Shown one piece after another: positions 9,733 to 24,340 of a DNA stretch of 64,000 nucleotides. This stretch comes from an uncultured Gemmatimonadales bacterium. GTDB lineage: Bacteria > Gemmatimonadota > Gemmatimonadetes > Gemmatimonadales > Gemmatimonadaceae. Position numbers and translations under genes: made by a program. The stretch is taken from positions 64,001-128,000 of the forward strand of contig CAWKNZ010000001.1 of assembly GCA_963851265.1 (NCBI GenBank). Direction: 5' to 3'. The notes beneath the pieces are model-generated. The model was not told the DNA's origin. It did not search any database and saw only the letters and a program-made list of their open reading frames with translations. Within the stretch, counting starts at the first letter, position 1, and every line of letters begins with the position of its first letter.

Positions 9733-12039
9733 ATGCCGCCGTCCGCTGATCGCCCCGTCGGCAACCCCGCGGTCGTGTCTGGTCACTCGGGACTGAGGGT
9801 CTACCGGGCGCTCCCCGCCGCCGCCGGGCTCGCCGCGCTCGCGATCGGCACGCTGGTGCTCGTCGGCTGGACCACCAGGCTGGTCGTCCTCACCCGCGGG
9901 CTTTGGGCGACCACCGCCACGATGCCCGACACCGCGGTCGCCATCGTGCTGCTCGGCGTGTCGCTCTGGCTCCTCCGCCCGCGCGACGGCCGCGCACCGG
10001 CCGCCGGCACGCCCGCCGTCGGCATCGGACGCCTGTGCGCCGCCACGGCCTGCGTGCTCGCGCTGCTCATGGGTTTCGAGTGGGTCTCCGGGCGCGACCT
10101 CGGCATCGATCGCCTGCTGTTCTCGAGCGCGTTGACCGACGCCGTGCGGAACGGCGTCAGCGCGACGCCCGGGCGCATGGCGGGCAACACCACGCTCGCC
10201 GTGTTCCTGCTCGGCGCCGCCCTCCTCCTGCTCGACGCGCCCGCCCTCGAGGGCCGCGGTGCGGGCGCGCGCCTCGGACGCATCGCGCGGTGGGCGTGCA
10301 ACGGACTCGGCATCCTGCTGCCGTACTTCGCGGTCGTCGGGTACCTGTTCGGAGTGCGGCGGCTGTACAACCCGTCCGGGTTGCTCGCCGGTATGGCCCT
10401 CACCACCGCGTGCGCACTCACCTGCGTGGCCGTCGGGACCTCGCTCGCGCGCCCCGCCCGGGGCGTCGCGCGGCTGCTCACCGGCGAGGACGCGGGCGCC
10501 CACCTGCTGCGGCGTTCGCTACCGGTGACCGCGTTCGTGCCGGTGCTGCTCGGCTGGCTGCGCATCCGTGGCGAGGAACTCGGCTTCTTCACACCGCGCG
10601 TGGGCGTGGCGGCTATCGTCCTCGCGTTCACGGTCGTGATGGTCACGACCCTCACCCGGGCGGGCGCCGCCGCGTACAAGCTCGCCGCCGACCGCGCCCG
10701 CATCCTCGGCGAACGCGAGGCGGCGCGCGAAGCCGCACGCGAGGCGCTGGAGCGCGGCGAGGCCGAGTTCCGGGAACTGGCCGACAACCTTCCGCAGCTC
10801 GCGTGGATGGCCGACGCCACCGGCTCGATCTTCTGGTACAACCGGCGCTGGTACGACTACACCGGAAGCACGCCTGACCAGATGCTCGGCTCGGGCTGGC
10901 GTGTGGTCCAGCACCCCGACCACCTCCAACGCGTCGAGAACGGCTACCGGACCGCCGTCGCGCGGGGCACGCCGTGGGAAGACACCTTCCCGCTGCGCTC
11001 GGCCGACGGCGAGTGGCGCTGGTTCCTCTCGCGCGCCAACCCGATGCAGGCGTCGAGCGGAGGGACGGTTCGCTGGTTCGGTACCAACACCGACGTCACC
11101 GCGCAACGCGCCCTCGAGGCCGAGCGCGAGCGCCTGCTCGCCGCCGAACGCCTCGCGCGCGCCGACGCGGAGCGCGCGAGCGCGGAAGCCGCTGCGGCGA
11201 GTCGCGCCAAGAGCCAGTTCCTGGCGACGATGAGCCACGAATTGCGCACCCCGCTCAACGCGATCTCGGGTCACGTGCAACTCGTCGAACTCGGCCTGCA
11301 CGGGCCCGTCACCCCCGAGCAGCGTGACGCGCTCAACCGCGCCCAGCGCGCCCAGCGCCACCTGCTCGGCCTCATCAACGACGTGCTCAACCTCGCGAAG
11401 ATCGAGGCCGGGCGCGCCGACTACCGCATGGACGAGGTCGTCGTCGCCGAGCTCGCCGCAGACGTCACGTCGCTCGTCGCCCCGCAGCTCGCGGCCAAGG
11501 GCGTCACCTTCGCCGTCGACGTGCCCGACGAGCACGCGGCCGTCGCGTGGGCCGACCGCGAGAAGACATCACAGGTGCTGCTCAACCTGTTGAGCAACGC
11601 GATCAAGTTCACCGACGCCGGCGGACACGTCACCCTCGAGGCGCGCGCCGAGGACGGCGGCGCCGGACCCGTCGTGGTCTTCCGCGTGCGCGACACCGGG
11701 CGCGGAATTCCGTTCGAAGACCGCGACCGCATCTTCGAGCCGTTCGTGCAGCTCGACGCCGGGTACGCGCGGCAGCAGGAGGGTACGGGACTCGGGCTCG
11801 CGATCAGTCGCGACCTCGCGCGCGGCATGGGCGGCGACCTCACGCTCGTGACGAGCAGTGAGGACCACGGGTCGGTGTTCGCGCTTACGCTCCCCCGCGT
11901 GCTGCCGTCTGGCCCCGACGCCGACCGCCGAACCGGCGAGGAGCGACGCGACGGTCAACGCCGCGAAACCGCCGACCGGCGCACCGGCGAGGAGCGGCGC
12001 GACGAGCTGCTGGACCCGAACATCACGTTCGACAACTGA
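9733..12039 (+). CDS. Membrane-bound PAS sensor histidine kinase with an Arg-rich C-terminal repeat tail
   Basis: About 7 TM; PAS (YNRRWYDYTG..HPD); H-box FLATMSHELRTPLN; NLLSNAIKFT, DTGRGI, GTGLGL. Confidence 0.93.
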   Translation: MPPSADRPVGNPAVVSGHSGLRVYRALPAAAGLAALAIGTLVLVGWTTRLVVLTRGLWATTATMPDTAVAIVLLGVSLWLLRPRDGRAPAAGTPAVGIGRLCAATACVLALLMGFEWVSGRDLGIDRLLFSSALTDAVRNGVSATPGRMAGNTTLAVFLLGAALLLLDAPALEGRGAGARLGRIARWACNGLGILLPYFAVVGYLFGVRRLYNPSGLLAGMALTTACALTCVAVGTSLARPARGVARLLTGEDAGAHLLRRSLPVTAFVPVLLGWLRIRGEELGFFTPRVGVAAIVLAFTVVMVTTLTRAGAAAYKLAADRARILGEREAAREAAREALERGEAEFRELADNLPQLAWMADATGSIFWYNRRWYDYTGSTPDQMLGSGWRVVQHPDHLQRVENGYRTAVARGTPWEDTFPLRSADGEWRWFLSRANPMQASSGGTVRWFGTNTDVTAQRALEAERERLLAAERLARADAERASAEAAAASRAKSQFLATMSHELRTPLNAISGHVQLVELGLHGPVTPEQRDALNRAQRAQRHLLGLINDVLNLAKIEAGRADYRMDEVVVAELAADVTSLVAPQLAAKGVTFAVDVPDEHAAVAWADREKTSQVLLNLLSNAIKFTDAGGHVTLEARAEDGGAGPVVVFRVRDTGRGIPFEDRDRIFEPFVQLDAGYARQQEGTGLGLAISRDLARGMGGDLTLVTSSEDHGSVFALTLPRVLPSGPDADRRTGEERRDGQRRETADRRTGEERRDELLDPNITFDN

Positions 12040-12042
12040 CCC

Positions 12043-12537
12043 GTGGCCGAAACCACACTCGACCTGCGACACCTCCCCAAGCACGACGCCTACGCCCAGC
12101 TCGACGCGCATGTGCGCGCGGTGCTCGCCGGCGTCGACGACCCTATTGCCGGGATGGCGACCGTGAGCTGCCTCGTGCACCACGCCTTCGGCCACCTGTG
12201 GACCGGGTTCTACCGCGTCGTCGACCCCGGCCGGCTGCTGCGTGTGGGCCCGTACCAGGGCACGCTCGGCTGCCTCGACATCGCGTTCGGCCGCGGCGTG
12301 TGCGGCACCGCGGCGGCCGACGGGCGGACGGTGGTGGTCGAGGACGTCGAAGCGTTTCCGGGCCACATCGCATGCGACGCGCGGTCGCGCAGCGAGATCG
12401 TGGTGCCGGTGTGGGACCGCGACGGCGCGCTCCTGGCCGTGCTGGACGTGGACAGTGAGCGCGTGGGCGCGTTCGACGCCGACGACGCCGCGGGGCTGGC
12501 GCGGATCGTCGCACGCTTCGCCGAACCGCCGGCGTAA
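12043..12537 (+). CDS. msrC: GAF-domain free methionine-R-sulfoxide reductase-like protein
   Basis: WTGFY, GPYQG, C..I.FGRGVCGTAA, FPGHIACD, SEIVVP, LDVDS. Confidence 0.85.
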   Translation: MAETTLDLRHLPKHDAYAQLDAHVRAVLAGVDDPIAGMATVSCLVHHAFGHLWTGFYRVVDPGRLLRVGPYQGTLGCLDIAFGRGVCGTAAADGRTVVVEDVEAFPGHIACDARSRSEIVVPVWDRDGALLAVLDVDSERVGAFDADDAAGLARIVARFAEPPA

Positions 12538-12610
12538 CGGACCGCCTCGCACCGCCCCGCCGCACGACCGGCCCCACGCTCCGGCCCGCCCGGTATTACA
12601 ATCCCCCCCG

Positions 12611-13234
12611 ATGGCCGTCCCCGGATACTCCGACCGCGTCAACCACGCGCTCGCCTTCGCCGCGAAGCACCACGACCGCGAGGTGCGCAAGGGCACGCGG
12701 GCGCCCTACTTCACCGCGCCGGCCAACGTGGCCGTGATCCTCACGCGCTACGATTGCGACGAGGACACCGTCGTGGCCGGGGTGCTGCGCCACGCGGTCG
12801 AGGACATGCTGCGCGACGGGGCGAGCGAGGACGGCGTGCACGAGCGCCTGGCCGACAAGTTCGGCCCCGACGCGGTGGAGGCGGTGCTGCACGTGGCCCG
12901 CCGCCGCTTCGACGACGACGGCGTCGAGCTGTCGCACGAGGAGCAGAAGCACGACACGCTCGACCGCCTCGCCAGCGCGTCGGACGCGGCGCGGTGGGCC
13001 TTCGCCGCACACGAGGTGCACGACGCGGCCACCCTCCTCGCCGACCTGCGGCGCACGAGCTTTCCCGACTCGGTATGGCAGCGCGTCGCCGAAGGGCCGG
13101 TCGGGCGAGTCCGCTGGTACCACGACGCCGCGGCACGCCTCGCCGCCGTCGGATTCCACGCCGGCATCATCGACGAGTTGCGCGGCGCCGCCGCAGCCCT
13201 CGACGGCAGCGCGCCCGCGTCGATGGCCCGATAG
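12611..13234 (+). CDS. Mesh1/SpoT-like HD-domain protein with degenerate metal ligands
   Basis: ALAFAAKHH..RKG...PY pattern; LRHAVED in place of LHDVVED; TACAAT 8 nt before the ATG. Confidence 0.75.
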   Translation: MAVPGYSDRVNHALAFAAKHHDREVRKGTRAPYFTAPANVAVILTRYDCDEDTVVAGVLRHAVEDMLRDGASEDGVHERLADKFGPDAVEAVLHVARRRFDDDGVELSHEEQKHDTLDRLASASDAARWAFAAHEVHDAATLLADLRRTSFPDSVWQRVAEGPVGRVRWYHDAAARLAAVGFHAGIIDELRGAAAALDGSAPASMAR

Positions 13235-13260
13235 CCGGGTCGACGCACGAAACACGAGAG

Positions 13261-13288
13261 GCGGGGGGCCCGGTGACGGGCCCCCCGT
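13261..13288 (+). terminator. GC-rich hairpin after the HD gene
   Basis: cggggggcccg-GTGA-cgggccccccg, 11-bp stem with GNRA loop; no clear U-tract. Confidence 0.6.
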
Positions 13289-13317
13289 CGTGCGTCCGGG
13301 CTGGCAATCTCGACCAT

Positions 13318-13345
13318 TCAAGTCTGACTGCGGTCGTGCCGATAA
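13318..13345 (+). promoter_or_regulatory. sigma28 (FliA/WhiG/SigD)-like promoter, copy 1
   Basis: TCAAGT-N14-GCCGATAA; same boxes and spacing recur at 19257. Confidence 0.7.
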
Positions 13346-13415
13346 CGGAGCCCGAGGCGCTCGCCACCTCCGGCTCCGCACCTCGCTCCACTCCGCTTTC
13401 ACAGCAAAGACGCAT

Positions 13416-13532
13416 ATGTCGCCACGTCGCAACAGCAGCCCCCGGCTGCCGCGCGCGCGCCACATCGCCCGCGTCGGCCCGGCGCTCGGCCCCGCCGCCC
13501 GCGCCGGCACCCCCGCACCCCGGATCGGCTGA
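13416..13532 (+). CDS. 38-aa leader ORF, copy 1 (MSPRRNSSPRLPRARHIARVGPALGPAARAGTPAPRIG)
   Basis: Stop overlaps the next start (TGATG); first 20 codons nearly identical to the copy at 19355; same length. Confidence 0.55.
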   Translation: MSPRRNSSPRLPRARHIARVGPALGPAARAGTPAPRIG

Positions 13533-14221
13533 TGCCCCTCGCCTTAACCTCGTTCCGCCGCGGCCTGCGCGCCGCCACGCCCGCGATCGCCCTCGGCACC
13601 GCAGCCCTCACCGCGGCGCTCGCGGCCTGCTCCGACAGCAACAGCCCGACTGGCCCGGTCGTCGCGAGCGCCCGCACGCCGCAGCCCGTTGGGCCCGCGT
13701 ATGCGACCGCGAGCACGGCGGCCTCCCAGGTGCTCAGCCAGACCCAGAGCGGCGACACCACGGTCACGACCCTGCAGCTCGGCACGAGCACCGGCCAGCT
13801 GGTCGCGCAGATCGGGAACGCGAGCAAGATCGTCTTCCCGTACGCCGCCGCTTCGGTGTGTGACCCGGCGAGCTCGAGCTATGGCATCGGCACGTGGAAC
13901 AGCCCGTGTACCGCCGCCACGACCCCGATCCAGATCACGGCTAAGACGTGGGTCGACCCGGAGACCGGCAAGACCCGGAGCAGCTTCTCGCCGGCGCTCC
14001 GCTTCGTGCCCGGGCTCAAGAGCAGCGGTCACGCTCTACCTCCACGACCCGAACCAGCGTCGCGAGGCGACGCGATCTGGTACTGTCCCGACGGCGCGCT
14101 CACGTTGCGTGGACGAGGCGAGCGCGGACCCGAGCGTGGCCACCCAGTACGGCAGCAGTAGCCAGCGGGTCTACGCGCGGCCATCAAGCACTTCTCCGGC
14201 TACACCGTCGTCGTCAACTGA
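13532..14221 (+). pseudogene. HFS-motif lipoprotein paralog 1, 3' part broken by about 4 frameshifts (pseudogene or assembly error)
   Basis: Lipobox LAAC. Segments homologous to the 20089 paralog alternate between two frames: RFVPGLKS / AVTLYLHDP / IWYCPDG / CVDEASADPSV / IKHFSGYTVVVN-stop at 14221. Confidence 0.75.
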
Positions 14222-14225
14222 CGGC

Positions 14226-14293
14226 GCGCGGACGGACGCGATCGGGGGCAGTCGGGCAGATGCCCGACTGCCCCCGATCGCGTCCGTCCGCGC
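14226..14293. terminator. Perfect inverted repeat with 33-bp arms and a 2-nt spacer
   Basis: 14226-14258 is the exact reverse complement of 14261-14293. Confidence 0.8.
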
Positions 14294-14419
14294 CGCACGA
14301 AGCCCGTCTCGCCCCGCGGTGCCGGGCGATGTCACGCCCGGCCGACATACCCGTCCTATCGACGGCCACCGAGTGGCCTCTCGATTCGCACGCCCGTTCC
14401 CGCCGTCCCTGGTCCGCGC

Positions 14420-17400
14420 ATGTCCGCGCTCGCGCATCCCGCGCCCCGCCCCGCACACCTCCGCCTCGTGCCGGCTCACGCCGACGCGCTGCAGACGCGC
14501 GTCGCCGAACTGGTAGCGAGGGGGCAGGAGGCCGAGCGGCAGGGGCATCGGGCCGCCGCCCGCGCGAGCTTCGAACAGGCGCTGCACGCGCTCGACGACG
14601 CGGCGACGGCGCGCGAGCACGCGTCGGCCATCGTGCGCATGATCGCGCGCACCTGCCAGATGGATTCCGAGCCGGACGCCGCGCTCGACTGCCTCGAACT
14701 CGCGCTGGCGATCGCCGAAGCCTGGGCCGACGGAACGGGCATCGGCCACGCCATCAACGGGCAGGCGATCGTGAACTGGCAGACGGGGCGCCTCGATGAG
14801 GCGGAGCGCCTGTACCTGCTCGCGCGCACGCGCGCCCTGCAGAGCGGCGACGCGAAGCTCGCGGCGATGACCGCACAGAACCTCGGCGTCCTCGCGAACG
14901 CGCGCGGCGACTACGAGGTCGCCCAGCGCCACTACGAGCGGAGCCTCGCCGAGTACCGCGTGCTCGGCCTCACGCACGACGTGGCCGTCGCGCTCAACAA
15001 CCTGGGACGGCTGCACACCGCGCGCGGGCAGTGGAAGGCGGCGGAGCAGGTGCTCGTCGAGGCCGCCGAGATCTGCGACCTCGCGGGCGACGTTGCCACA
15101 CGCATCGCGGTCGACGCGAACGTGGCGGAGATGTGGGTCGCGCAGGGCGCGTTCGACCGCGCGCAGGCCGCGGTCACCCGCGCGATCGAAGGTGCGACGA
15201 ACGTCGGGGACACGTCGGTCCTGGGGCAGGCGGACAAACTGCTCGGGATCATCGCGCGCGAGGCGGGCGAGTTCGTGACCGCCGAACGGTATTTCGTACA
15301 TGCCGACGAGGTGGCGAGGGCGCGCCAGGACGTGCTGCTCCAGGCGGAGATCGCCCGCGAGCGCGGGGACCTGGCGCAGCGCGTCGGGAAGAACCGCGAC
15401 GTGCTGCAGCACCTCAATCGCTCGCACCGGCTGTTCACCGAGTTGCGCGCGGGCGCCGACGTGGCCGACATCGACCGGCGGCTCGGCGGGCTCGAGGCGC
15501 AGTTCCTCGAGGTCGCGCGCCGGTGGGGCGAGTCGATCGAGTCGAAGGACTGCTACACCCAGGGGCACTGCCAGCGCGTGGCCGACCTCGCGTGCCTCCT
15601 CGCCGAGCACGCGGGGGCCGACCACGGCTTCGACGCGCAGGCCATGTTCTGGTTCCGGATCGGGGCGCTGCTGCACGACGTCGGCAAGCTGATGATTCCG
15701 CCCGAGGTGCTCAACAAGCCGGGCAAGCTGACCGACGAAGAGTGGATCCTGATGCGGAGCCACACGACCGCGGGGGTGGCGATCCTCGCCGACATCGAAT
15801 TCCCCTGGGACGTCCGCCCGATCATCGAGTCGCACCACGAGCGGTGGGACGGGCGCGGATACCCGAACCGCCTCGTCGGCGAGGCCATCCCGCTCACCGC
15901 GCGCATTCTGTGCGTGGCCGACGTCTACGACGCGCTCACCTCGGTCCGGTCGTACAAGCGCGCCCTGACGCACGACGAGGCCGTGGGCATCATGCGCCGC
16001 GACGTCGGGACCATGTTCGACCCGCAGGTGTTTGCCTGGTTCGAGGAGATCGCCGCCGAGTGGGCGGGGCGCGTCGCCGCACCCGACGCGTCGCCGCCTG
16101 CCGCCGCCGCACCGGCGGTCGCGCCGCCCGCAGCGCCGGCGTCCGAAACCGGGACGTCGTCGGTGAGCGAGTCGGAAGCCCCCGCGCGCGCCGACGTGCC
16201 CGACGACCTCACCGGGCTGCCGCTCCGGCGAGCGTTCCGCGATACCGCCGAACGCATCCTCGCCGCGCGGCGGACCACCGGCCGGCCGGTGTCGCTGCTC
16301 GTCATCGACGTCGACCACTTCAAGCTCGTCAACGACACCTTCGGGCACCTGCAGGGCGACGACATCCTGCGGGCCGTGGCCGACCAGATCCGAGCCAGCA
16401 CCCGCCCGGTCGACTACCCGGCACGGTACGCGGGCGACGAGTTCGTGGTGCTCCTGCCCGGGACACGGCTCGACGAGGCACGGGCCGTGGCCGAGCGGAT
16501 CCGGTCGGCGGTCGCGCGTGCGACCTGTCCGCGGCGCGACGGACCGGGCGTGGTCTCGGTGACGCTGTCGATCGGTGTCGCGACCCTCCCGCAGCACGGC
16601 GAGACCCTCGAAGCCCTGTTCGCGGCGTCCGATGCGGCGCTCTACGACGCCAAGCGCGCCGGCCGGAATGCCGTGAGCGCGGGGTCGGCCGACGCCGACC
16701 GGCGCCGTGACCTGATGCTTGAGTGCTTCGTGGGGCGTGTGGCCGAGCGTGCCCACCTGCGCGAGCGCCTCGACGCGGCCGCCCAGGGCCGCCCGCACGT
16801 GGTCGCCGTGTGCGGCGAGGCGGGCGTCGGCAAGTCGACGCTGGTCAAGCAGCTCGCACCCGACGTCGGCATTCGCTCCGGCTCGCTCATCACCGGGCGG
16901 TGCGTCGACACCGACCTGCGCGCGCCGTACGCGCCCTGGGTGGACGCGGTGCTCGGCGTGCTCCGTGCCGGCATCGCCCCCCGGCATGCGTGGCGCGAGC
17001 TGACGCGCCTCGTCCCCGAGCTGGTCGGCGGTGCGGACGCGTCCCGTCGCGAGACGGGTTCGCCGCACGCGCTGCTCGAGGAACTCGACCTCTTCTTCCG
17101 CCTCGCGTCGGAGATCCGACCCATAGTCGTCGTGCTCGACGACATGCAGTGGGCGGACACTGCCAGCTGGAGCGCGCTCGAGTACCTCGTCGGCCGGTTC
17201 GACACGCAGCGGCTGCTGATCTGCCTCACCATCCGCGCCGAGGACCTCGACGATGCGGGCGACGCACGCCGCCGCCGGCTCTCGCGCGCCGACGTCTATA
17301 CCGAGATCTCGCTCCCCCGGCTCACCGAGGCGGACCTCGCGCTGTGGCTGCGGACGGCCCTCGGAGGCCAGGAGCCCGAGCCTGCGCTCCTCGCCTACCT

Positions 17401-19240
17401 CGTCGCGCAGAGCGAGGGGAACTCGTTCTTCGCGCTGCAGACGCTCCGCGCGCTCGCCGACGACGAGCGCCTGACGTTCGTCGACGGGCGCTGGACGTTC
17501 GATGCCGCGGCCGACGGCTCCATGCCGCGCGCGATCCACGATCTGCTCGCGCGCCGGGTCGCTCGGCTCGACCGACCCTGCCGCGACGCCCTCGCGGTCG
17601 CGGCCGTCCTCGGACGCGAGTTCGACCCGGAGACCCTGGTCGCGGCGTGCGAGGGGAACGAGGCCGGGGTACTCGACGCCCTCGATGCCGGGATGGAGGC
17701 CGCGGTGCTGGTCCCGTCCGAGATCTCGCCGACGGCCGTCGCGTTCGCGCACACGCTCCTCACGCGCGTGCTGCAGGACGGGATCAACCCGCTGCGCCTG
17801 CGTCGCATTCACGAGCGCGTGGGGCGTGCGCTGGAGTCGCGCGGCGGGCACGCGCCGGCCCAGGTCGCGCTGCACTTCGACCGCGCGGGGTGTGCCGAGG
17901 ACGCCTACCGGACGGCCATGAACGCCGGCGCGCGCGCGGCCGACCTGTACGCGTACGAGACGGCGGCGGACCTCTTCGAGATGGCACTCCGGCACGCGCG
18001 CACGCTGCGCGAGACGGCCGACGTCGAGTGGCGCACCGCGCAGATCGCCGAGATCCGCGGCCGCTACGCCGACGCGGAACGTGCGTGCGACGCCGTCCTC
18101 ACCACGTTCGCCAGCGGGGCGGCGGAGATCGGGATCCTGCGTGCGGCGCGCCGCATGCGCGAGCGACTCCGCCTTCAGCGAGGGGCGTCGGCGAGCCAGG
18201 TCGCCGAGACGTGTACCGAACTGCTCGCCGAGGCGCGCGCGGCCGGTGCCGACGAGGAGATCGTCCCGCTCCTGATCATGATCTCGACGGCGCACGGGCG
18301 GCGCGGCGACGGGTCCGAAGCGGCGCGAATCGCCCGCGACGCGAACGACGAGGCCGAGCGGCTCCGCAGCCTCCCGCTCCAGGCGGACGCCGCGATGCGG
18401 CTCGGGTCGACGGTCCTCGAGATCAGTCCCGCCGACGCCGTCCCGCACTACCGGCGGGCGCTCGACATCTTCACGCGCCTCGACAACCGGTACGGGCAGC
18501 TGCGCGCACAGATCAACATCGGCGTGGCCTGCGACCGGGCGGGGAACAGCCCGGGGGCGGAGGTCTCGTACGCGACCGCGCTGTCGATCGGGCGCGACAT
18601 CCGCGCGACGGACCTCACCGGCATCGCGTCGCTCAACCTCGGCGTGCTCCTGCTCAAGACTGGCCGGTTCGACGGCGCACGGGAGCGCTTCGAGGAGGCG
18701 CGACAGCTCTTCGTGACGATCGCGAACGAGCCGTACCGACTGGCCGCGCTGTACAACCTCGCGAACGTCGCCCGCGAGTGCGGCGACGCGGCCGGCGCGC
18801 TCGAGCTGTACGGCGCGGCCATCTCGCTCGCCGAGTCGTTGGGTCACGCCGACGTGCACGCCGGCGCCCTCGCCGGCGCCGGATTGGCCGAACTCGACCT
18901 CGGCGCGATGCGCGGCGCGCGCGTGCACCACGACGCCGTGCGCGCGCTCGTCGACGGGCGGACGGACGCGTGGTTCGAGGGGCGCGAGCTGTGCGAGGCG
19001 CTCGACGTCCGGCTCGCCGCGCAGGATGGGTCGGAGTCCGAGGCGGTCGCCCGACTGCTCGACGCGCTCGACCGCGCGGAGCTGCACAACCAGTACGCCG
19101 CCATCTGGCTCGGGGCCGAGTGCGCGGCCGTGCTCCGGAGCGCGGGACGCGTGGCCGAAGTCACGCTGCACCGGTTCCTCGTGCACGCGCGCGCCCTCGG
19201 CTACGACCCGCTCGTCACGCGACTGCGCGCGGACGGTTAG
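14420..19240 (+). CDS. 1606-aa TPR / HD-GYP / GGDEF / STAND-type AAA ATPase / TPR signalling protein
   Basis: TPR repeats (ALNNLG); HD-GYP YTQGHCQRV, LHDVGK, HHERWDGRGYP, VADVYDAL; IDVDHFKLVNDTFGH..RPVD..RYAGDEF; Walker A GEAGVGKST, Walker B VVLDDMQWAD; C-terminal TPRs. Confidence 0.93.
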   Translation: MSALAHPAPRPAHLRLVPAHADALQTRVAELVARGQEAERQGHRAAARASFEQALHALDDAATAREHASAIVRMIARTCQMDSEPDAALDCLELALAIAEAWADGTGIGHAINGQAIVNWQTGRLDEAERLYLLARTRALQSGDAKLAAMTAQNLGVLANARGDYEVAQRHYERSLAEYRVLGLTHDVAVALNNLGRLHTARGQWKAAEQVLVEAAEICDLAGDVATRIAVDANVAEMWVAQGAFDRAQAAVTRAIEGATNVGDTSVLGQADKLLGIIAREAGEFVTAERYFVHADEVARARQDVLLQAEIARERGDLAQRVGKNRDVLQHLNRSHRLFTELRAGADVADIDRRLGGLEAQFLEVARRWGESIESKDCYTQGHCQRVADLACLLAEHAGADHGFDAQAMFWFRIGALLHDVGKLMIPPEVLNKPGKLTDEEWILMRSHTTAGVAILADIEFPWDVRPIIESHHERWDGRGYPNRLVGEAIPLTARILCVADVYDALTSVRSYKRALTHDEAVGIMRRDVGTMFDPQVFAWFEEIAAEWAGRVAAPDASPPAAAAPAVAPPAAPASETGTSSVSESEAPARADVPDDLTGLPLRRAFRDTAERILAARRTTGRPVSLLVIDVDHFKLVNDTFGHLQGDDILRAVADQIRASTRPVDYPARYAGDEFVVLLPGTRLDEARAVAERIRSAVARATCPRRDGPGVVSVTLSIGVATLPQHGETLEALFAASDAALYDAKRAGRNAVSAGSADADRRRDLMLECFVGRVAERAHLRERLDAAAQGRPHVVAVCGEAGVGKSTLVKQLAPDVGIRSGSLITGRCVDTDLRAPYAPWVDAVLGVLRAGIAPRHAWRELTRLVPELVGGADASRRETGSPHALLEELDLFFRLASEIRPIVVVLDDMQWADTASWSALEYLVGRFDTQRLLICLTIRAEDLDDAGDARRRRLSRADVYTEISLPRLTEADLALWLRTALGGQEPEPALLAYLVAQSEGNSFFALQTLRALADDERLTFVDGRWTFDAAADGSMPRAIHDLLARRVARLDRPCRDALAVAAVLGREFDPETLVAACEGNEAGVLDALDAGMEAAVLVPSEISPTAVAFAHTLLTRVLQDGINPLRLRRIHERVGRALESRGGHAPAQVALHFDRAGCAEDAYRTAMNAGARAADLYAYETAADLFEMALRHARTLRETADVEWRTAQIAEIRGRYADAERACDAVLTTFASGAAEIGILRAARRMRERLRLQRGASASQVAETCTELLAEARAAGADEEIVPLLIMISTAHGRRGDGSEAARIARDANDEAERLRSLPLQADAAMRLGSTVLEISPADAVPHYRRALDIFTRLDNRYGQLRAQINIGVACDRAGNSPGAEVSYATALSIGRDIRATDLTGIASLNLGVLLLKTGRFDGARERFEEARQLFVTIANEPYRLAALYNLANVARECGDAAGALELYGAAISLAESLGHADVHAGALAGAGLAELDLGAMRGARVHHDAVRALVDGRTDAWFEGRELCEALDVRLAAQDGSESEAVARLLDALDRAELHNQYAAIWLGAECAAVLRSAGRVAEVTLHRFLVHARALGYDPLVTRLRADG

Positions 19241-19256
19241 GCGGTCAGGCGCGCGC

Positions 19257-19283
19257 TCAAGTCGCGCCGGGCTGTTGCCGATA
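19257..19283 (+). promoter_or_regulatory. sigma28-like promoter, copy 2
   Basis: TCAAGT-N14-GCCGATA, same spacing as copy 1. Confidence 0.7.
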
Positions 19284-19354
19284 CTCCGGCCCGAGGGCGT
19301 CGCCACCTCCGGCGCCGCGCCTCGACCCACCCCGCTTCCACAGCAACGACGCAT

Positions 19355-19471
19355 ATGTCGCCACGCCGCAACAGCAGCCCCCGGCTGCCGCGCCTGCGCC
19401 ACATCGCCCGCGTCCCCTCGGCGGCAGGCCCCGCCGGTGGCGCGGTCTTCACGTTCACCTTGAGCATCTGA
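19355..19471 (+). CDS. 38-aa leader ORF, copy 2 (MSPRRNSSPRLPRLRHIARVPSAAGPAGGAVFTFTLSI)
   Basis: Translated by hand; ATG lies 78 nt after the start of GCCGATA, as in copy 1; stop is 3 nt before the next ATG. Confidence 0.55.
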   Translation: MSPRRNSSPRLPRLRHIARVPSAAGPAGGAVFTFTLSI

Positions 19472-19474
19472 CTA

Positions 19475-20089
19475 ATGCGCCACCTCACATCATTCCGCCG
19501 CGCCGTGCACGTCGCGACGCCCGCGCTCGCCCTCGGCACGGCCGTCGTCACGGCCGCCCTCGCCGCCTGCTCCGACACCCCGACCGGGCCGGCCACTCCG
19601 AACGCGGCCGAAGCCGCGTTCCATCCGGGCCTGCACGCGAACGTGTCCTCGAGTCCGATGGCGGTCACGCCCGTCAAGCGGACGCAGCGTGTCGCGCAGG
19701 ACTCGGTCGTCACCTTCACCGTGCAGCCCGGCGGGACGACGTTCCGCGGCCCGGACGCCTCGATCAGCTTCCCGGCCGGGTTCGTGACCAAGCCGACGCA
19801 GTTCACGGCCACCCGCAAGGGTGGCAGCGCCCTCGCCTACGACTTCCAGCCCTCGGGCACCTTCACGAAGCCGGTGACGGTCACGTTCACGCTCGCAGGG
19901 GCGGCGATCCCGGCCGGCGCGAATCTCTCGGCGCTGCAGGGCGCCTACGTGCAGGATTGGAGTCAGGTCAGCGACTCCACGGCTGCGGTCAGCGAACTCG
20001 AGCCCACCACGGTCGACCCGAAGTCGGGCACGGTGACGATGACCCTCTCGCACTTCTCCGGCTACCTCGTCTCGTGGGGGCGGCGCTAA
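19475..20089 (+). CDS. ZU5-like lipoprotein ending in HFSGY (paralog 2)
   Basis: Lipobox LAAC; ISFPAGFV...DFQPSGTFTKPVTVTF...LSHFSGYLVSWGRR resembles the ZU5 pattern. Confidence 0.75.
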   Translation: MRHLTSFRRAVHVATPALALGTAVVTAALAACSDTPTGPATPNAAEAAFHPGLHANVSSSPMAVTPVKRTQRVAQDSVVTFTVQPGGTTFRGPDASISFPAGFVTKPTQFTATRKGGSALAYDFQPSGTFTKPVTVTFTLAGAAIPAGANLSALQGAYVQDWSQVSDSTAAVSELEPTTVDPKSGTVTMTLSHFSGYLVSWGRR

Positions 20090-20829
20090 TGCGTAGCACG
20101 TTCGCCCCCCTGCGTTACGCCGTGCGCGCGGCCACGCCCGCGCTCGCCCTCGGCGTCGCCACGCTCACCGCGGTGCTGGCCGCGTGCTCCGATAGCTCCA
20201 CCGGCCCGACGCAGCCCAGCGCGCCGTCGGCGAGTCGTGCGGTCGCTCCGCCGCCCCCCGCGGCGATGCTCGCCGCGCTCTCGCAGGGCGTCCAGGGCGC
20301 GACCACCGGCCCGTCGTTCTCCCGCGTGGCCGAGCAGTCGGCGGTGGCGCACGGCGATACCGCCATCATCACGCTGACCTTCGACCCCACGGTCGCGCAC
20401 ACCGTCGCGTTCAACACGCGCACCAGCCAGAACGGCGTCGCCCTCGCCGCCAACTCGGTGTGCAACCCGGCGACGTCGGGCTACGGGCCACTCCTGTGGG
20501 ACGCGCCGTGCCAGGTGGCGACGAAGCCCTTCACCCTCACCGTCCGGGGCTGGATGGGAACCGATGGCCAGCCGAAGGTCGCGTTCTCGCCGGACATCCG
20601 GTTCGCGCCGTCGGCCACCAACTGGCTCTGGCTGGCGGGACCCGGCGCCGGGTCCGCGAAGGGCGTGATCGCGTGGTGCCCGACGGCCGGCGGCCTGTGC
20701 GTCAACGAGTCCGCGCTCGACGGAAGCGTGATGACCGGCACCGACAAGGGGATCTACTACCGGCGGATCAAGCACTTCTCCGGCTACACCGTGGTGGTGA
20801 ACCGGACCGGGGCGGTCGACGGTCTCTGA
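20089..20829 (+). CDS. HFS-motif lipoprotein paralog 3
   Basis: TAATG overlap with the previous gene; lipobox LAAC; two Cys pairs shared with paralog 1; ends IKHFSGYTVVVNRTGAVDGL. Confidence 0.8.
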   Translation: MRSTFAPLRYAVRAATPALALGVATLTAVLAACSDSSTGPTQPSAPSASRAVAPPPPAAMLAALSQGVQGATTGPSFSRVAEQSAVAHGDTAIITLTFDPTVAHTVAFNTRTSQNGVALAANSVCNPATSGYGPLLWDAPCQVATKPFTLTVRGWMGTDGQPKVAFSPDIRFAPSATNWLWLAGPGAGSAKGVIAWCPTAGGLCVNESALDGSVMTGTDKGIYYRRIKHFSGYTVVVNRTGAVDGL

Positions 20830-20869
20830 CGGGGCGCTCGACCGCTGGGCCTCGATCGTCAGGCACCGA

Positions 20870-20932
20870 GCACGCGGAAACACACGGGGCCGCCGGGCGA
20901 CATGCCCGGCGGCCCCGTGTGTTTCCGCGTGC
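20870..20932. terminator. Perfect inverted repeat with 29-bp arms between convergent genes
   Basis: 20870-20898 pairs with 20904-20932; 5-nt loop. Confidence 0.8.
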
Positions 20933-20937
20933 GAGCC

Positions 20938-22650
20938 TCAGCGTGTGGCCACCGTGCCGTGCGCGGCCTGCCCGGAATCGCCCGCGATGCCCCAGTCGGC
21001 GATTCCGGCCCACCAGGCGTCGGCGCGCATCGCGACCGGTCGCAGGTCCCGTCGCACGGCGGCGATGCTGCGCGGCTCGTATAGCCACACCGCGGGCGCG
21101 TCGTCGATGATCGTGGCGTAGGCGCGCCGAACGAGTGCCGTGCGGCGCTCCGGCTGGAACTCGGCGGAGGCGCTGTCGAGGAGCGCGTCGAAGGTCGCGT
21201 TCGTCCAGCGCCCGGAGTTGGCGCCGCCGTCCGCGCCGCGCGGCGTGCCCCAGTCGTGGCGCAGCGTGGTCGGATTCGGGTCGGTTCGCCACGAATTGAG
21301 CGCGACGTCGAAGTCGCCCGCGTGCAGGCGCTCGATGAAGCTTCCCGGGTCGACCGCGTCGATGTTCACGCGCACGCCGATCTGGGCCAGCTGGGCCTGC
21401 AGCAGCACCGCGAGACGCATGCGCGGCACGCTACTCGTGGGAACGAGGAGTGCGAGGTCGAGCGGCCGGCCGGCGCGCGCGCGCCGGCCCGACGTCGGGT
21501 CGAGCCGCCAGCCCAGGGCGTCGAAGCCGCGCGCCGCGGCGGCCGGATCGTAGGCGATCTGGCGGAGCGTCGTATCCGCCGTGGGTTGCGCGCGCGTGAA
21601 CGGTCCGAGGGCGACGCGGGCGCTGGGGCCGAGCGCGTTGCGCACCACCGCCGCGCGGTCGATCGCCTGGGTGAGCGCGACGCGTGCGGCGCGGTCGGCG
21701 AACGGCGCACCGATGCCGGCCCCGCGCGCGCCGGTGCGCGCCCGCTCGTTGAAGACGAGGAAGGCGTAATCCAGGCTGCCGTATTCGACGGTGCGCAGCC
21801 GGGGCGAGCGCGCCGCGCGGTCGATGGCCTCGCCGCGGACGGCTTCGAGCACGTCCGCCTGCCCCGACAGGACGCTGGCGAGCGCCGCGTTGGGGTCGCC
21901 GGTGACCGTCCAGACGACGCGGTCGAATCGCGGACGGCCGCGGTAGTTGGTCGTATCGGCGTTGAGGGTCAGCTGACGGTGGTGGTCCCAGGCGGCGAAC
22001 CGGTAGCGTCCGGAGCCGATCGGATGCGCGGCGAACGCGGACGTCGCGACGGCCGAACGCGGTACGCTGCCGAGCAGGTGCTCGGGCATCACGGCCAGGT
22101 TGTAAGCGACCTGGAAGAACTGCTCGGGGGAGCGGCGGTGCCACCACACGACGGCGGTGAGCGAGTCGCGCACGGCGACCGAGTCCATGCCCGCGAAATC
22201 GGAGGCGTGGACCGAAGCGCCCGTCGTGTCGGTGAACAGGGCGAACGAGAAGCGTACGTCGCGCGCGCGTACCGGCCGGCCGTCGTGCCAGCGTGCGCGC
22301 GGGTCCAGCTCGAAGGCGATCGAGAGCGAATCGGGGGCCCACGTCCAGCGCCGTGCGAGCTGCGGGCGGTAGCCGCCGTCGCCGTTGGTGGGGACCGAGT
22401 CGTCGGCGGTCGCGAGATGGTCGAAGACGAGGTCGACCGCCTGCTTGCCCTGGGTCGTGGCGACGAGCGGCGGGATCAGCTGGTCGGCGTCGGCCGGCGT
22501 CGCGATCACGAGGGCCTGGGCTCCGCGTCCCGACGGGGGGGTGCCGCGTCCGCAGGCCGCGACGGTGAGGGCCGCGAGCGCGGCGAGCGGGAGCGCGTGC
22601 GGGCTGGGGGCGTGCGGGCGGGGGGCGTGCGGGCGCGGCGACGGCGGCAT
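20938..22650 (-). CDS. Peptide ABC transporter substrate-binding lipoprotein (family 5)
   Basis: VAAC lipobox; PQLARRW, ARWHDGRPVRARDVRFS and IGSGRYRF motifs. Confidence 0.88.
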   Translation of the reverse strand: MPPSPRPHAPRPHAPSPHALPLAALAALTVAACGRGTPPSGRGAQALVIATPADADQLIPPLVATTQGKQAVDLVFDHLATADDSVPTNGDGGYRPQLARRWTWAPDSLSIAFELDPRARWHDGRPVRARDVRFSFALFTDTTGASVHASDFAGMDSVAVRDSLTAVVWWHRRSPEQFFQVAYNLAVMPEHLLGSVPRSAVATSAFAAHPIGSGRYRFAAWDHHRQLTLNADTTNYRGRPRFDRVVWTVTGDPNAALASVLSGQADVLEAVRGEAIDRAARSPRLRTVEYGSLDYAFLVFNERARTGARGAGIGAPFADRAARVALTQAIDRAAVVRNALGPSARVALGPFTRAQPTADTTLRQIAYDPAAAARGFDALGWRLDPTSGRRARAGRPLDLALLVPTSSVPRMRLAVLLQAQLAQIGVRVNIDAVDPGSFIERLHAGDFDVALNSWRTDPNPTTLRHDWGTPRGADGGANSGRWTNATFDALLDSASAEFQPERRTALVRRAYATIIDDAPAVWLYEPRSIAAVRRDLRPVAMRADAWWAGIADWGIAGDSGQAAHGTVATR

Positions 22651-22757: not shown

Positions 22758-24131
22758 TCACACGCCCGCGGGCACGCCCTGCGGCACGCCGGCCGGCACG
22801 CGCGCGTCGTCGGCGGCCGCGTCGGCCGCGGTCGGGTAGGTGCGCTCGACGTACTCCTCCAGGATACCGAGGAACTCCTCGACGATCCGGTCCCCCTTGA
22901 GCGTCGTCATCAGCCGCCCGTCCACGTAGACCGGCGCCTTGGGCTCCTCGAACGTTCCCGGCAGCGAGATCCCGATGTTCGCGTGCTTGCTCTCGCCCGG
23001 CCCGTTCACCACGCACCCCATCACGGCCACCTTCATGTCGACCACGCCCGGGTGCGAGCGCTTCCACACCGGCATCTGCTCGCGCAGGTACGTCTGGATG
23101 TCCTCGGCCATGTGCTGGAAGAACGTGCTCGTCGTGCGCCCGCACCCCGGGCAGGCCGTGACCTGCGGCGCGAAGCTGCGCATGCCTAACGACTGCAGCA
23201 CCTGCTGCGCGACGTAGACCTCCTCGGTGCGGTCGCCGCCGGGCTTGGGCGTGAGCGAGACGCGGATCGTGTCGCCGATGCCGTCGGCCAGCAGGATCGA
23301 CAGGCCGGCCGTCGAGGCGACGACCCCCTTGCTCCCCATCCCCGCCTCGGTGAGGCCGAGGTGCAGCGGGTAGTCGCAGCGCCGGCCGAGCCGGCGGTAC
23401 ACCTCGACGAGGTCGGGCACCACCGAGACTTTGGCCGAGATGATGATCCGGTCGTGCCCGAGCCCGACCTCCTCGGCCAGCGCGGCGGAGCGGAGCGCGC
23501 TCTCGAGCATCGCCTCCATGTAAACCTCCTTCGCGCCTAACGGGGCGGCGCTCGCGGCGTTGGCGTTCATCATCGCCGTGAGGAGGTCCTGGTCGAGCGA
23601 GCCCCAGTTGACGCCTATGCGCACGGGCTTGCCGTGGTCGATCGCGACGCGCACGATCTGCGCGAAGTTCTCGTCGCGCCGCTTGTTGCCGACGTTGCCC
23701 GGGTTGATGCGGTACTTGTCGAGCGCGGCGGCCGCGGCCGGGTACTTCGTCAGCAGCAGGTGCCCGTTGTAGTGGAAGTCGCCGACGAGCGGCACGTCCA
23801 GCCCGAGGTCGTCGAGCCGCGCGCGGATCTCGGGGACGGCGGCGGCGGCCTCCTCGTTGTTCACCGTCACGCGCACGATCTGCGAGCCGGCCCCGAACAG
23901 CGCGGCCACCTGCGCGACCGTGCCCGCGGCGTCGGCGGTGTCGGTGTTGGTCATCGACTGTACGACCACCGGGTGCGCCGACCCGACGGCGACGTTGCGG
24001 ACCCAGCTCGTCACCGTCGCGCGGCGGCGGGCGAAGGGGGACGGCTCGGCGGCGGTCGGACCCGCGGCGGGCGGGACGGCACTGCTCGCCTGCGTGGCGA
24101 GGTCGGCGACGGGAAGCGGCGAGGACGGCAT
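22758..24131 (-). CDS. ispG: (E)-4-hydroxy-3-methylbut-2-enyl-diphosphate synthase
   Basis: [53 protein letters not shown]; probable ATG 24131 with TAGCTT 8 nt upstream. Confidence 0.97.
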
Positions 24132-24340
24132 GGGCTGGGAAGCTAGCAATCGAGGTGGTCACCGATGCTACCCCGCAGGCGCCGCCGCGGCGCGCGGTAC
24201 CGGGCGGCGGGAGCCCGTCGGCACGCATCGCGCGTGGTCGGGGCACGACCCCGCAGCGGGGTTCTCGTCTCGGTGCCTCGAACCGAGCGGCGCCTCGAAC
24301 CGAGCGGACGGCTCGGATCCATCCTCACTCCCGACACCTC

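Follow-up and report, generated by a model that had tools for sequence, protein, structure and literature searches.

We analysed a stretch of 64,000 nucleotides (the window; C1:64001-128000) from the genome assembly of an uncultured Gemmatimonadales bacterium (4.6 Mb, GC content 73-74%). In the window, genes for lipoproteins with a ZU5 domain lie on both sides of a gene for a 1606-residue protein that combines tetratricopeptide repeats (TPR) with enzymes of cyclic di-GMP (c-di-GMP) turnover. The subject of this report is the pairing of these lipoproteins with the large protein, called the receptor below, and the short tail that the lipoproteins would lose by self-cleavage. A preliminary description of this DNA had listed two promoters, two leader open reading frames (ORFs), three lipoproteins, the large gene and two hairpins; all were found in their places, with the exception that lipoprotein 1 is not an intact ORF (Table 1). 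The promoter and leader cassettes (187 nt each, 13318-13504 and 19257-19443) are 81% identical to each other, and each of the two opens with TCAAG-N15-GCCGATA. The adjoining gene for a solute-binding protein lies just past the range of the preliminary description and was absent from it.

Table 1. Features of the locus in window coordinates. TPRn and TPRc are the N- and C-terminal TPR domains; a slash marks the predicted cut.
Feature	Position	Strand	Remarks
Sigma28-type promoter	13318..13344	+	TCAAG-N15-GCCGATA; same motif 81 nt before flagellin start
38-codon leader ORF, first copy	13416..13532	+	stop coupled to next start
Lipoprotein 1, class B (Cys-insert) ZU5 domain	13532..14221	+	frameshifted in assembly; lipobox Cys 13628; HF/S 14189-14197; predicted tail SGYTVVVN
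Perfect hairpin, 33 bp	14226..14293	+	without U-tract
Receptor-enzyme, 1606 aa, TPRn-HD-GYP-GGDEF-STAND-TPRc	14420..19240	+	predicted cytoplasmic
TPRn, about 8 TPRs	14480..15514	+	Asn113/154/194/234 with R73, K273, R280, R313, E314; candidate pocket for class A tails
HD-GYP phosphodiesterase domain	15515..16054	+	HDVGK, HHERWDGRGYP, DVYDAL motifs
GGDEF domain	16202..16669	+	AGDEF active site; RPVD (RxxD) inhibitory site
STAND-type NTPase (AAA_16)	16727..17869	+	Walker A GEAGVGKS; Walker B region LDDMQWAD
TPRc, MalT-like C-terminal TPR sensor	18047..19219	+	candidate pocket for class B tails
Second sigma28-type promoter	19257..19283	+	
Second 38-codon leader ORF	19355..19471	+	
Lipoprotein 2, class A ZU5 domain	19475..20089	+	Cys 19568; predicted released tail SGYLVSWGRR 20057-20086
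Lipoprotein 3, class B ZU5 domain	20089..20829	+	Cys 20185; predicted tail SGYTVVVNRTGAVDGL 20779-20826
Perfect hairpin, 29 bp	20870..20932	+	
Family-5 ABC solute-binding protein (peptide/nickel type)	20938..22650	-	convergent, 145 bp from cassette; candidate importer subunit

The receptor matched TPR_12, HD_5, GGDEF, AAA_16 and a C-terminal TPR domain, and it has no transmembrane-like stretch (top 19-residue hydropathy 1.34). The HD dyad, HHE and GYP motifs are all present, as they are in 224 of 250 relatives. The AGDEF site is shared with 78 of 107 full-length relatives. In NbdA, a site of this type is reportedly degenerate. The AGDEF site of VCA0965 is active (PMC3974145; here and below, citations refer to the accessible parts of the sources). 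The AAA_16 match (E 4.8e-28; Walker A in 116 of 121 relatives) is followed by helical sensor repeats, the arrangement of STAND proteins. In receptors with TPRn and no STAND domain, the GGDEF domain is degenerate in 13 of 16 cases. Besides the full fusion, relatives occur as TPRn-HD-GYP, as GGDEF-STAND-TPRc and as stand-alone TPRn; because relatives carry the modules separately, the sequence of the window receptor is best read as two sensor-enzyme modules joined. Nearly all relatives (75 of 77 named loci) are from Gemmatimonadota, and one is on a 2.4-kb contig labelled Acidimicrobiales; the Atlas clusters are also mostly Gemmatimonadota, and the homologues are mostly named 'hypothetical'.

A model of TPRn (17 helices; predicted local distance difference test, pLDDT, 96.6) forms a TPR superhelix with a concave pocket and falls within the five to nine repeats of RRNPPA-type receptors. 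Its structural matches were MalT DIII, APPBP2, LGN, Rap, NprR and AimR (Z 23-30), among them Rap-phi105 with Z 27.4 (root-mean-square deviation, rmsd, 3.5 over 308 aligned residues), NprR with Z 24.8 and AimR with Z 23.0. Because MalT DIII, APPBP2 and LGN score equally or higher, common descent with Rap, NprR and AimR is not established; for a domain of helical repeats, the matches point to a peptide-binding type of fold, not to descent.

The lipoproteins consist of a signal peptide with a lipobox-like cysteine (in nearly all members; the pattern missed in four of those listed), a low-complexity linker, a single domain and a short tail. The motif of a histidine, a hydrophobic residue and a serine or threonine before the last strand is present as HFSGY in all three window lipoproteins. 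Lipoproteins 2 and 3 have lipobox cysteines and HFSGY tails, and neither matched a named family in Pfam, NCBIfam or PADLOC. The best structural match of the lipoprotein 2 model (pLDDT 68.9) was the ZU5 domain of ankyrin (Z 10.0, rmsd 2.8, 113 aligned), followed by the GAIN domain of CD97 (Z 8.2), UNC5b, the FIIND of CARD8 and NLRP1 (Z 6.3-7.2) and Nup98; Foldseek returned ZU5-ANK at E 1e-4. Pfam ZU5 was matched by 12 of 57 members of the family, which counts 2467 representatives at E 0.001 or better. The preliminary description had taken the HFS lipoproteins for an autoproteolytic type, and model, Foldseek and Pfam concur on a ZU5/GAIN fold. By analogy, the lipoproteins probably cut themselves and lose their last seven to ten residues; HF/S is the motif cut in the MAIN protein of B. 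subtilis (bioRxiv 10.64898/2026.05.12.724683). About half of the tails (147 of 302, not de-duplicated) have only 7-8 residues and the anchor is N-terminal, therefore no cargo domain would be freed and only the strand can leave. SGY begins 145 of 198 tails, a conservation of Ser1 and Tyr3 that is partly by construction, as tails were excised with that pattern and lipoproteins without it stand outside the tail counts.

Some members of the family depart from this plan. Cysteine takes the place of the nucleophile (HF/C) in L092, L101 and L142 (our locus numbers), and L083, L141, L071 and L076 also belong to this group of lipoproteins with a cysteine nucleophile or no histidine. Several of the group are upstream of double-TPR proteins of about 700 residues; they are possibly processed in trans or decoys. 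Six proteins of 376-410 aa (P0001-P0003, P0007-P0009) have two tandem ZU5 matches. In L111 (4643-8394), six tandem lipoprotein genes with three different tails precede three TPR genes, and in L022 (7407-7627), a decayed lipoprotein gene (tail region EQF-SRYVLAW) lies beside a receptor with an intact Asn ladder. A weak search of longer proteins for a natural fusion of lipoprotein and TPR (8000 candidates scored) gave one match, of 409 aa, with no Pfam domain on record.

The preliminary description had tied the lipoprotein cassettes to the large gene; in relatives they are linked, contrary to the lack of linkage that would have spoken against its proposal, and the pair spans the Gemmatimonadota. 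Within 41 related genomes, a lipoprotein gene was found at most 5 kb from 34 of 42 TPRn-HD-GYP genes (21 of 27 outside the genus), a count that is partly circular in that the lipoprotein profile was built from such neighbours. Because the first profile came from receptor neighbours, the linkage test was repeated on a phylum sample using new genomes only. For genomes of the same order outside profile building, a lipoprotein lay within 5 kb of 64 of 79 receptors (not counting receptor matches below 220 bits, 85 matches that were unlisted, or any of the genomes G000-G040). Of 75 lipoproteins in the new genomes, 50 were directly upstream of the receptor, on the same strand and within 500 bp. In other orders and classes of the phylum, the first profile found a lipoprotein for 0 of 16 receptors and a wider profile for 11 of 15 loci, 10 of them adjacent, with tails such as SRYALSRE and SYWALASD. 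When loci were selected by their receptor only, 126 of 157 had a lipoprotein (not de-duplicated, some repeating earlier loci), and so did 42 of 48 distinct receptors with upstream room; the latter count, the class sorting and the counts on 190 receptors given below are de-duplicated. The flanking on both sides described for the window is a local layout: the same-genus orthologue has the upstream cassette only.

The same genome contains three further receptor paralogues and four further lipoproteins (L001-L004), which make up two pairs, one receptor without lipoprotein or Asn ladder (C2:907-912 kb) and one two-lipoprotein cassette without receptor (C3:264 kb). Stand-alone TPRn genes are often beside a sigma54 activator, and such an activator is present in 21 of 127 lipoprotein loci. 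One run of lipoprotein, stand-alone TPRn, short sigma54 activator and TPRn-HD-GYP, often followed by SBP_bac_5, recurs in L046, L062, L120, L125-L127, L130 and L201; there the same TPR may control a sigma54 activator.

Four findings from sequence comparison suggest that the tail is a ligand: second copies of its motif, a conserved Asn ladder in the receptor, linkage to importer genes and sorting of lipoprotein classes with receptor domains. Among 60 distinct tails of at least 20 residues, 30 repeat the tail motif once more at their C-terminal end, beyond the fold (2000 shuffles gave a mean of 1.1 and a maximum of 7), and in 27 of the 30 the protein ends 7-9 residues after the start of the copy. 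The linker between the copies is unrelated sequence of up to about 70 residues. Since it stands outside the fold, after the linker, the second copy cannot be the domain's cut strand. It requires five changes on the 165-row lipoprotein tree, which suggests that it arose about five times. Duplicated pheromones are known from Rap propeptides (PMC11343458). Long tails in L165-L172, L181 and L236-L250, also in L039, L041 and L134-L136, contain a pair of cysteines, which suggests a disulfide loop between or after the peptide motifs.

The asparagines at positions 113, 154, 194 and 234 of TPRn are kept in 176, 180, 181 and 177 of 190 distinct receptors, respectively, and at least three of the four in 181. 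Six receptors have none of them: three are without a lipoprotein, and three, from one clade, have class B lipoproteins only. In loci with room for it, a lipoprotein is present in 165 of 178 cases when the ladder is intact and in five of nine when it is degenerate (relatives are not independent here, and many loci were picked for their lipoprotein).

Class B lipoproteins, recognised by a cysteine insert, form a single clade and accompany STAND-TPRc. Of 117 loci with TPRn only, 115 have class A and no other class; class B is present in six of the seven with TPRc only and in 37 of the 57 in which the two domains occur together. Two peptides, either A and B or one B precursor with two copies, are found with 25 of the 57 two-domain receptors. 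In the window, where the fused receptor has both TPR domains, the lipoproteins are of classes B, A and B, in this order.

An SBP_bac_5 gene is near 46 of the 190 distinct receptors, with co-directional permease genes in 13. Gene order was examined in detail in L146, where the lipoprotein is divergent to an operon oppA-oppB-oppC-receptor with overlapping stop and start codons; no ABC ATPase gene was seen in this operon. Solute-binding and permease genes followed by a receptor on the same strand, the lipoprotein mostly divergent upstream, also occur in L143, L147, L148, L150, L160, L163, L196, L202, L205, L206 and L232. On a quick tree, the window solute-binding protein clusters (support 100) with its counterparts next to full-length receptors of three other genomes. 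As this genome has six such genes in 4.6 Mb, the chance of one in a random 11-kb stretch is estimated at about 2%. Proteins of family 5 also bind nickel; the tail peptide is a candidate substrate.

Direct comparison of peptides and receptors added little. Among 43 pairs with non-Gly heptapeptides, arginine at tail position 2 covaried with acidic residues at receptor positions 121 and 350; on the tree, this amounts to four independent pairs only (median p 0.25). Of 303 tests, the one on position 121 came out on top in the complementary direction (2.64), but anti-complementary scores reach -2.91. The top mutual-information columns showed no clear enrichment for groove positions. Complex prediction for one pair (the TPRn of L166 with a 135-row alignment and its 32-residue tail with 15 rows) scored 0.02 against a mark of 0.32; the controls were not folded, and the score speaks neither for nor against binding.

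A different explanation is that the tail is structural only, that the lipoproteins serve in the envelope as adhesins or scaffolds, either sharing their regulation with the c-di-GMP enzyme or acting after it, and that the TPRs bind another protein. In RcbA/RcbB of Vibrio vulnificus, such peptide-free TPR-TPR control of a cyclase is published: the c-di-GMP enzyme is under the control of an N-terminal TPR, which the neighbouring gene's product switches, as we propose here, but the partner there is a cytoplasmic TPR protein, with no lipoprotein, peptide or importer (PMC12282931). Stand-alone TPRn genes adjoin TPRn-HD-GYP genes in our loci as well, and the pieces of MAIN remain together (bioRxiv 10.64898/2026.05.12.724683). 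The ZU5 fold has the first tail as its last beta-strand, and the length and pattern of this tail could be structural. This explanation leaves the second motif copies outside the fold, with their roughly five origins, the importer genes and the kept Asn ladder without a cause, and we consider it unlikely, if still to be reckoned with.

Several other observations weigh against the tail as ligand. About ten relatives deviate at the histidine or the nucleophile (GF/T, SF/S, TEF/A, GF/S and others) and are still beside receptors; a missing triad would equally suit a structural tail. No second copy has a His-triad to itself, and another protease would have to cut it. Some receptors are without a lipoprotein (L003, L012 and L042-L044), and at 14 lipoprotein loci no receptor was detected at the thresholds used. 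Close kin inflate all counts. As class B is one clade, the class sorting may reflect shared history, and 20 of the 57 two-domain receptors have class A only. The fetched stretch around 144 of the 190 receptors contains no solute-binding gene, and the best NCBIfam matches of the window solute-binding protein are to the nickel-binding NikA, below the cut-off. The low diversity of the tails is odd for strain-specific pheromones. The main gap is the release of the strand: MAIN fragments remain tightly bound after cleavage (bioRxiv 10.64898/2026.05.12.724683), as GAIN fragments do, and nothing obvious pulls the strand, there being no adhesion domain or C-terminal handle.

The low peptide diversity and the lack of an adjacent importer at most loci would also fit an alarm within a single cell, in which the tail, or an unexported lipoprotein, is in the cytoplasm only upon failure of export or of the membrane, and the TPR/STAND protein acts as an NLR-like sensor of self. 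NLRP1 and CARD8, with their FIIND, are the analogue; the structural matches of the lipoprotein fold to these two domains and the STAND-TPR architecture agree with it. However, the operons with an importer speak for a regulated uptake, the STAND domain is missing from most receptors, and no defence-system model fits. We judge such an alarm quite improbable.

The ligand might instead be derived from the other end of the lipoprotein. Enterococcus pheromones derive from lipoprotein signal peptides, and the 20 codons before the lipobox cysteine are under purifying selection and near-identical in seven copies from close relatives. Across the phylum, however, the signal peptides are not conserved whereas the tail is, and the duplicated motif is that of the tail, which makes a signal-peptide ligand very doubtful.

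The preliminary description had also proposed the product of the 38-codon leader ORF as a signal. It would be made in the cytoplasm, therefore needing no import, and its seven copies are all open, with 36-38 codons and a stop 0-5 nt from the lipoprotein start. These seven are all that was found among about 300 lipoprotein genes, all in this genus or a very close relative. Their variable sites fall 6/6/4 on the three codon positions, with 25 synonymous and 86 non-synonymous pairwise differences, whereas the adjacent signal peptide has 4/5/17 and 127/79; this is not the pattern of selection on a protein. The first codons of the leader match the start of the signal peptide of paralogous lipoproteins, where the same start context is the lipoprotein's own N-terminus. 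We abandoned the leader product as a signal, for which hardly any probability remains. The leader is probably what is left of the 5' end of an ancestral lipoprotein gene, preserved as nucleotide sequence, and perhaps serves translational coupling. As a structured RNA it was rejected: there was no Rfam match at the gathering score, and in a five-copy consensus fold many pairs were broken, with a covariation penalty of +3.72. Of the two flanking peptides once proposed as input to the c-di-GMP switch, the lipoprotein tails are thus the best candidate on sequence grounds, and the leader product falls away.

The promoters in front of the leaders had been assigned to sigma28. The genome has FliA and flagellin, and the flagellin gene is preceded by the same motif, consistent with the assignment for this locus. 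A strict promoter pattern had seven matches in the genome, four of them before these lipoprotein cassettes; a looser pattern, which includes the flagellin promoter, had 49, most apparently in coding sequence. Because a promoter-like site precedes just 23 of 273 lipoproteins, mostly of this genus (against nine on the opposite strand as control), sigma28 control would be local and not general across the lipoproteins. No sigma70 promoter was found, and no U-tract terminator at the hairpins. The hairpins have z-scores of about -13 (33 bp) and about -12 (29 bp). Hairpins with at least 25 perfect base pairs number 16 in the genome, three of them directly after these lipoprotein cassettes. The 33-bp hairpin is likely a transcript end or stabiliser.

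The frame of lipoprotein 1 switches at about 14030-14180, and an in-frame TAG at 14159 stands ahead of HFSGY; the same-genus orthologue is intact. A short-read contig, apparently of the same organism, has one base fewer at 14105 and at 14175 (a single contig of depth 3.4, possibly from the source sample), for which reason an assembly error is likelier than a pseudogene. Elsewhere in the genome, an ABC-F-like gene (L001:9759-10976) is apparently frameshifted, a further hint of indel errors in the assembly. Upstream of the first promoter, the window contains a PAS/HisKA histidine kinase (9733-12039), a GAF-only protein, which we take to be free methionine sulfoxide reductase-like, with an HD_4 (SpoT-hydrolase-like) protein (both within 12043-13234), and an extra hairpin (z -4.3; 13246-13299) between the HD gene and the promoter. 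The gene ispG (GcpE; 22758-24149, minus strand) is upstream of the solute-binding gene on the same strand.

Among described systems, RRNPPA is one of the nearest; its features are a precursor gene beside the receptor, a C-terminal peptide, Opp import, a TPR pocket, duplicates and orphans (PMC9765709). As in Rap-Phr, NprR-NprX, PlcR-PapR and AimR-AimP, the gene of an exported precursor with a short C-terminal peptide is beside that of a cytoplasmic TPR superhelix (PMC9765709), and there are linked genes of oligopeptide-permease type (SBP_bac_5 with permeases; best named matches nickel-type, below cut-off), duplicated peptides and orphan receptors. The predicted pheromone precursor here, adjacent and secreted and with a conserved C-terminal motif, is by contrast a folded lipoprotein of 200-250 residues that has a predicted cleavage site in itself; the TPR domain stands at the N-terminus, followed by HD-GYP, GGDEF or STAND outputs, with no HTH match or three-helix bundle; and the hosts are Gemmatimonadota. 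The system works like Rap/Phr but falls outside RRNPP(A), because it has no N-terminal HTH or three-helix bundle and its precursor is folded and self-cutting. With MAIN, the lipoproteins have in common the HFS motif with its cut, predicted here, between F and S, the GAIN-B/ZU5 sandwich, secretion and tethering to the envelope; MAIN proteins, at a mean of 158 kDa, are large, have a C-terminal wall anchor and release an N-terminal cargo, whereas the lipoproteins have an N-terminal anchor, no cargo and only the strand to release (bioRxiv 10.64898/2026.05.12.724683). The GAIN domain of adhesion G-protein-coupled receptors (GPCRs) has the same fold, and the strand after its cut, the Stachel, is like the tail a proposed agonist; the Stachel is fused to a seven-transmembrane receptor and acts in cis, whereas peptide and receptor here come from separate genes and belong to different compartments. 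Polymorphic toxins and surface proteins of bacteria also contain ZU5 autopeptidases, secreted members of the same domain family, but these lie within large RHS, adhesin or enzyme proteins, whereas those described here are stand-alone beside signalling genes (PMC3482391). MalT-type regulators likewise have a STAND NTPase followed by a MalT-like TPR sensor, with a C-terminal HTH as output in place of the N-terminal GGDEF/HD-GYP seen here, where the proposed ligand is a peptide.

The preliminary description did not recognise the locus as a described system, and we found no account of the lipoprotein/TPR-c-di-GMP pairing in the literature outside subscription journals and bioRxiv supplements. The main text of the MAIN preprint (bioRxiv 10.64898/2026.05.12.724683) has no mention of Gemmatimonad, TPR, lipoprotein or c-di-GMP, its supplementary protein lists possibly including these domains, and the accessible parts of PMC8195603 and PMC7159879 hold nothing on the lipoprotein/TPR system. 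This is a real, conserved and apparently undescribed module, probably a variant of peptide-TPR signalling.

From these genes, folds, motifs and linkages, we read the module as a peptide signalling system with a self-processing precursor, at a probability of roughly 60%, and infer its biochemical steps as follows. The lipoprotein, to go by its lipobox, would be exported and lipid-anchored by its N-terminal cysteine. As in PIDD, GAIN and MAIN domains, the ZU5/GAIN domain would cut itself between F and S of HF/S. The last strand (S-x-Y-x-(V/I/L)-x-x, variably extended) would then leave the domain, where the trigger may be force, unfolding or a protease. The linked family-5 ABC system would import the tail into the cytoplasm, and there the tail would bind the concave Asn ladder of the TPR domain and switch the attached enzyme. 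Going by the class sorting, class A tails would act on TPRn-HD-GYP and thus on c-di-GMP breakdown, and class B tails on STAND-TPRc-GGDEF and thus on synthesis; the window receptor would be a fusion of both modules with both precursor classes beside it. In this genus, precursors made from a late flagellar (sigma28) promoter would report motile cells, and the signal may adjust the balance between swimming and settling.

A bolder form of the proposal, in which the GAIN/ZU5 'Stachel' is a free diffusible pheromone, falls somewhat short of an even chance in our estimate: heptapeptides would be shed, possibly upon mechanical or envelope stress, and re-imported by a dedicated permease, and the two classes would set c-di-GMP synthesis and breakdown on one fused receptor. 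If true, the Gemmatimonadota would share a language between cells throughout the phylum, and the tethered agonists of adhesion GPCRs would be bridged functionally to quorum sensing of the Rap/Phr type.

Because the ligand sequences can be read from the genes, and both proteins are small domains expected to express in E. coli, the idea is testable with synthetic peptides. Cytoplasmic peptide-TPR signalling has been described for Firmicutes (PMC9765709); the new aspects here are a receptor that fuses two sensors, precursors of two classes, the linkage to an importer and the recurrence of the peptide motif within tails. The C-terminal MAIN fragment is not known to signal, as far as the accessible text of the preprint goes (bioRxiv 10.64898/2026.05.12.724683), and the proposed system, if true, would give the C-terminal fragment of microbial GAIN-like domains a signalling role. 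It would also give a soil phylum that is abundant but poorly understood a peptide signal that matures by itself, with a direct connection to c-di-GMP and, at other loci, a place next to sigma54 activators.

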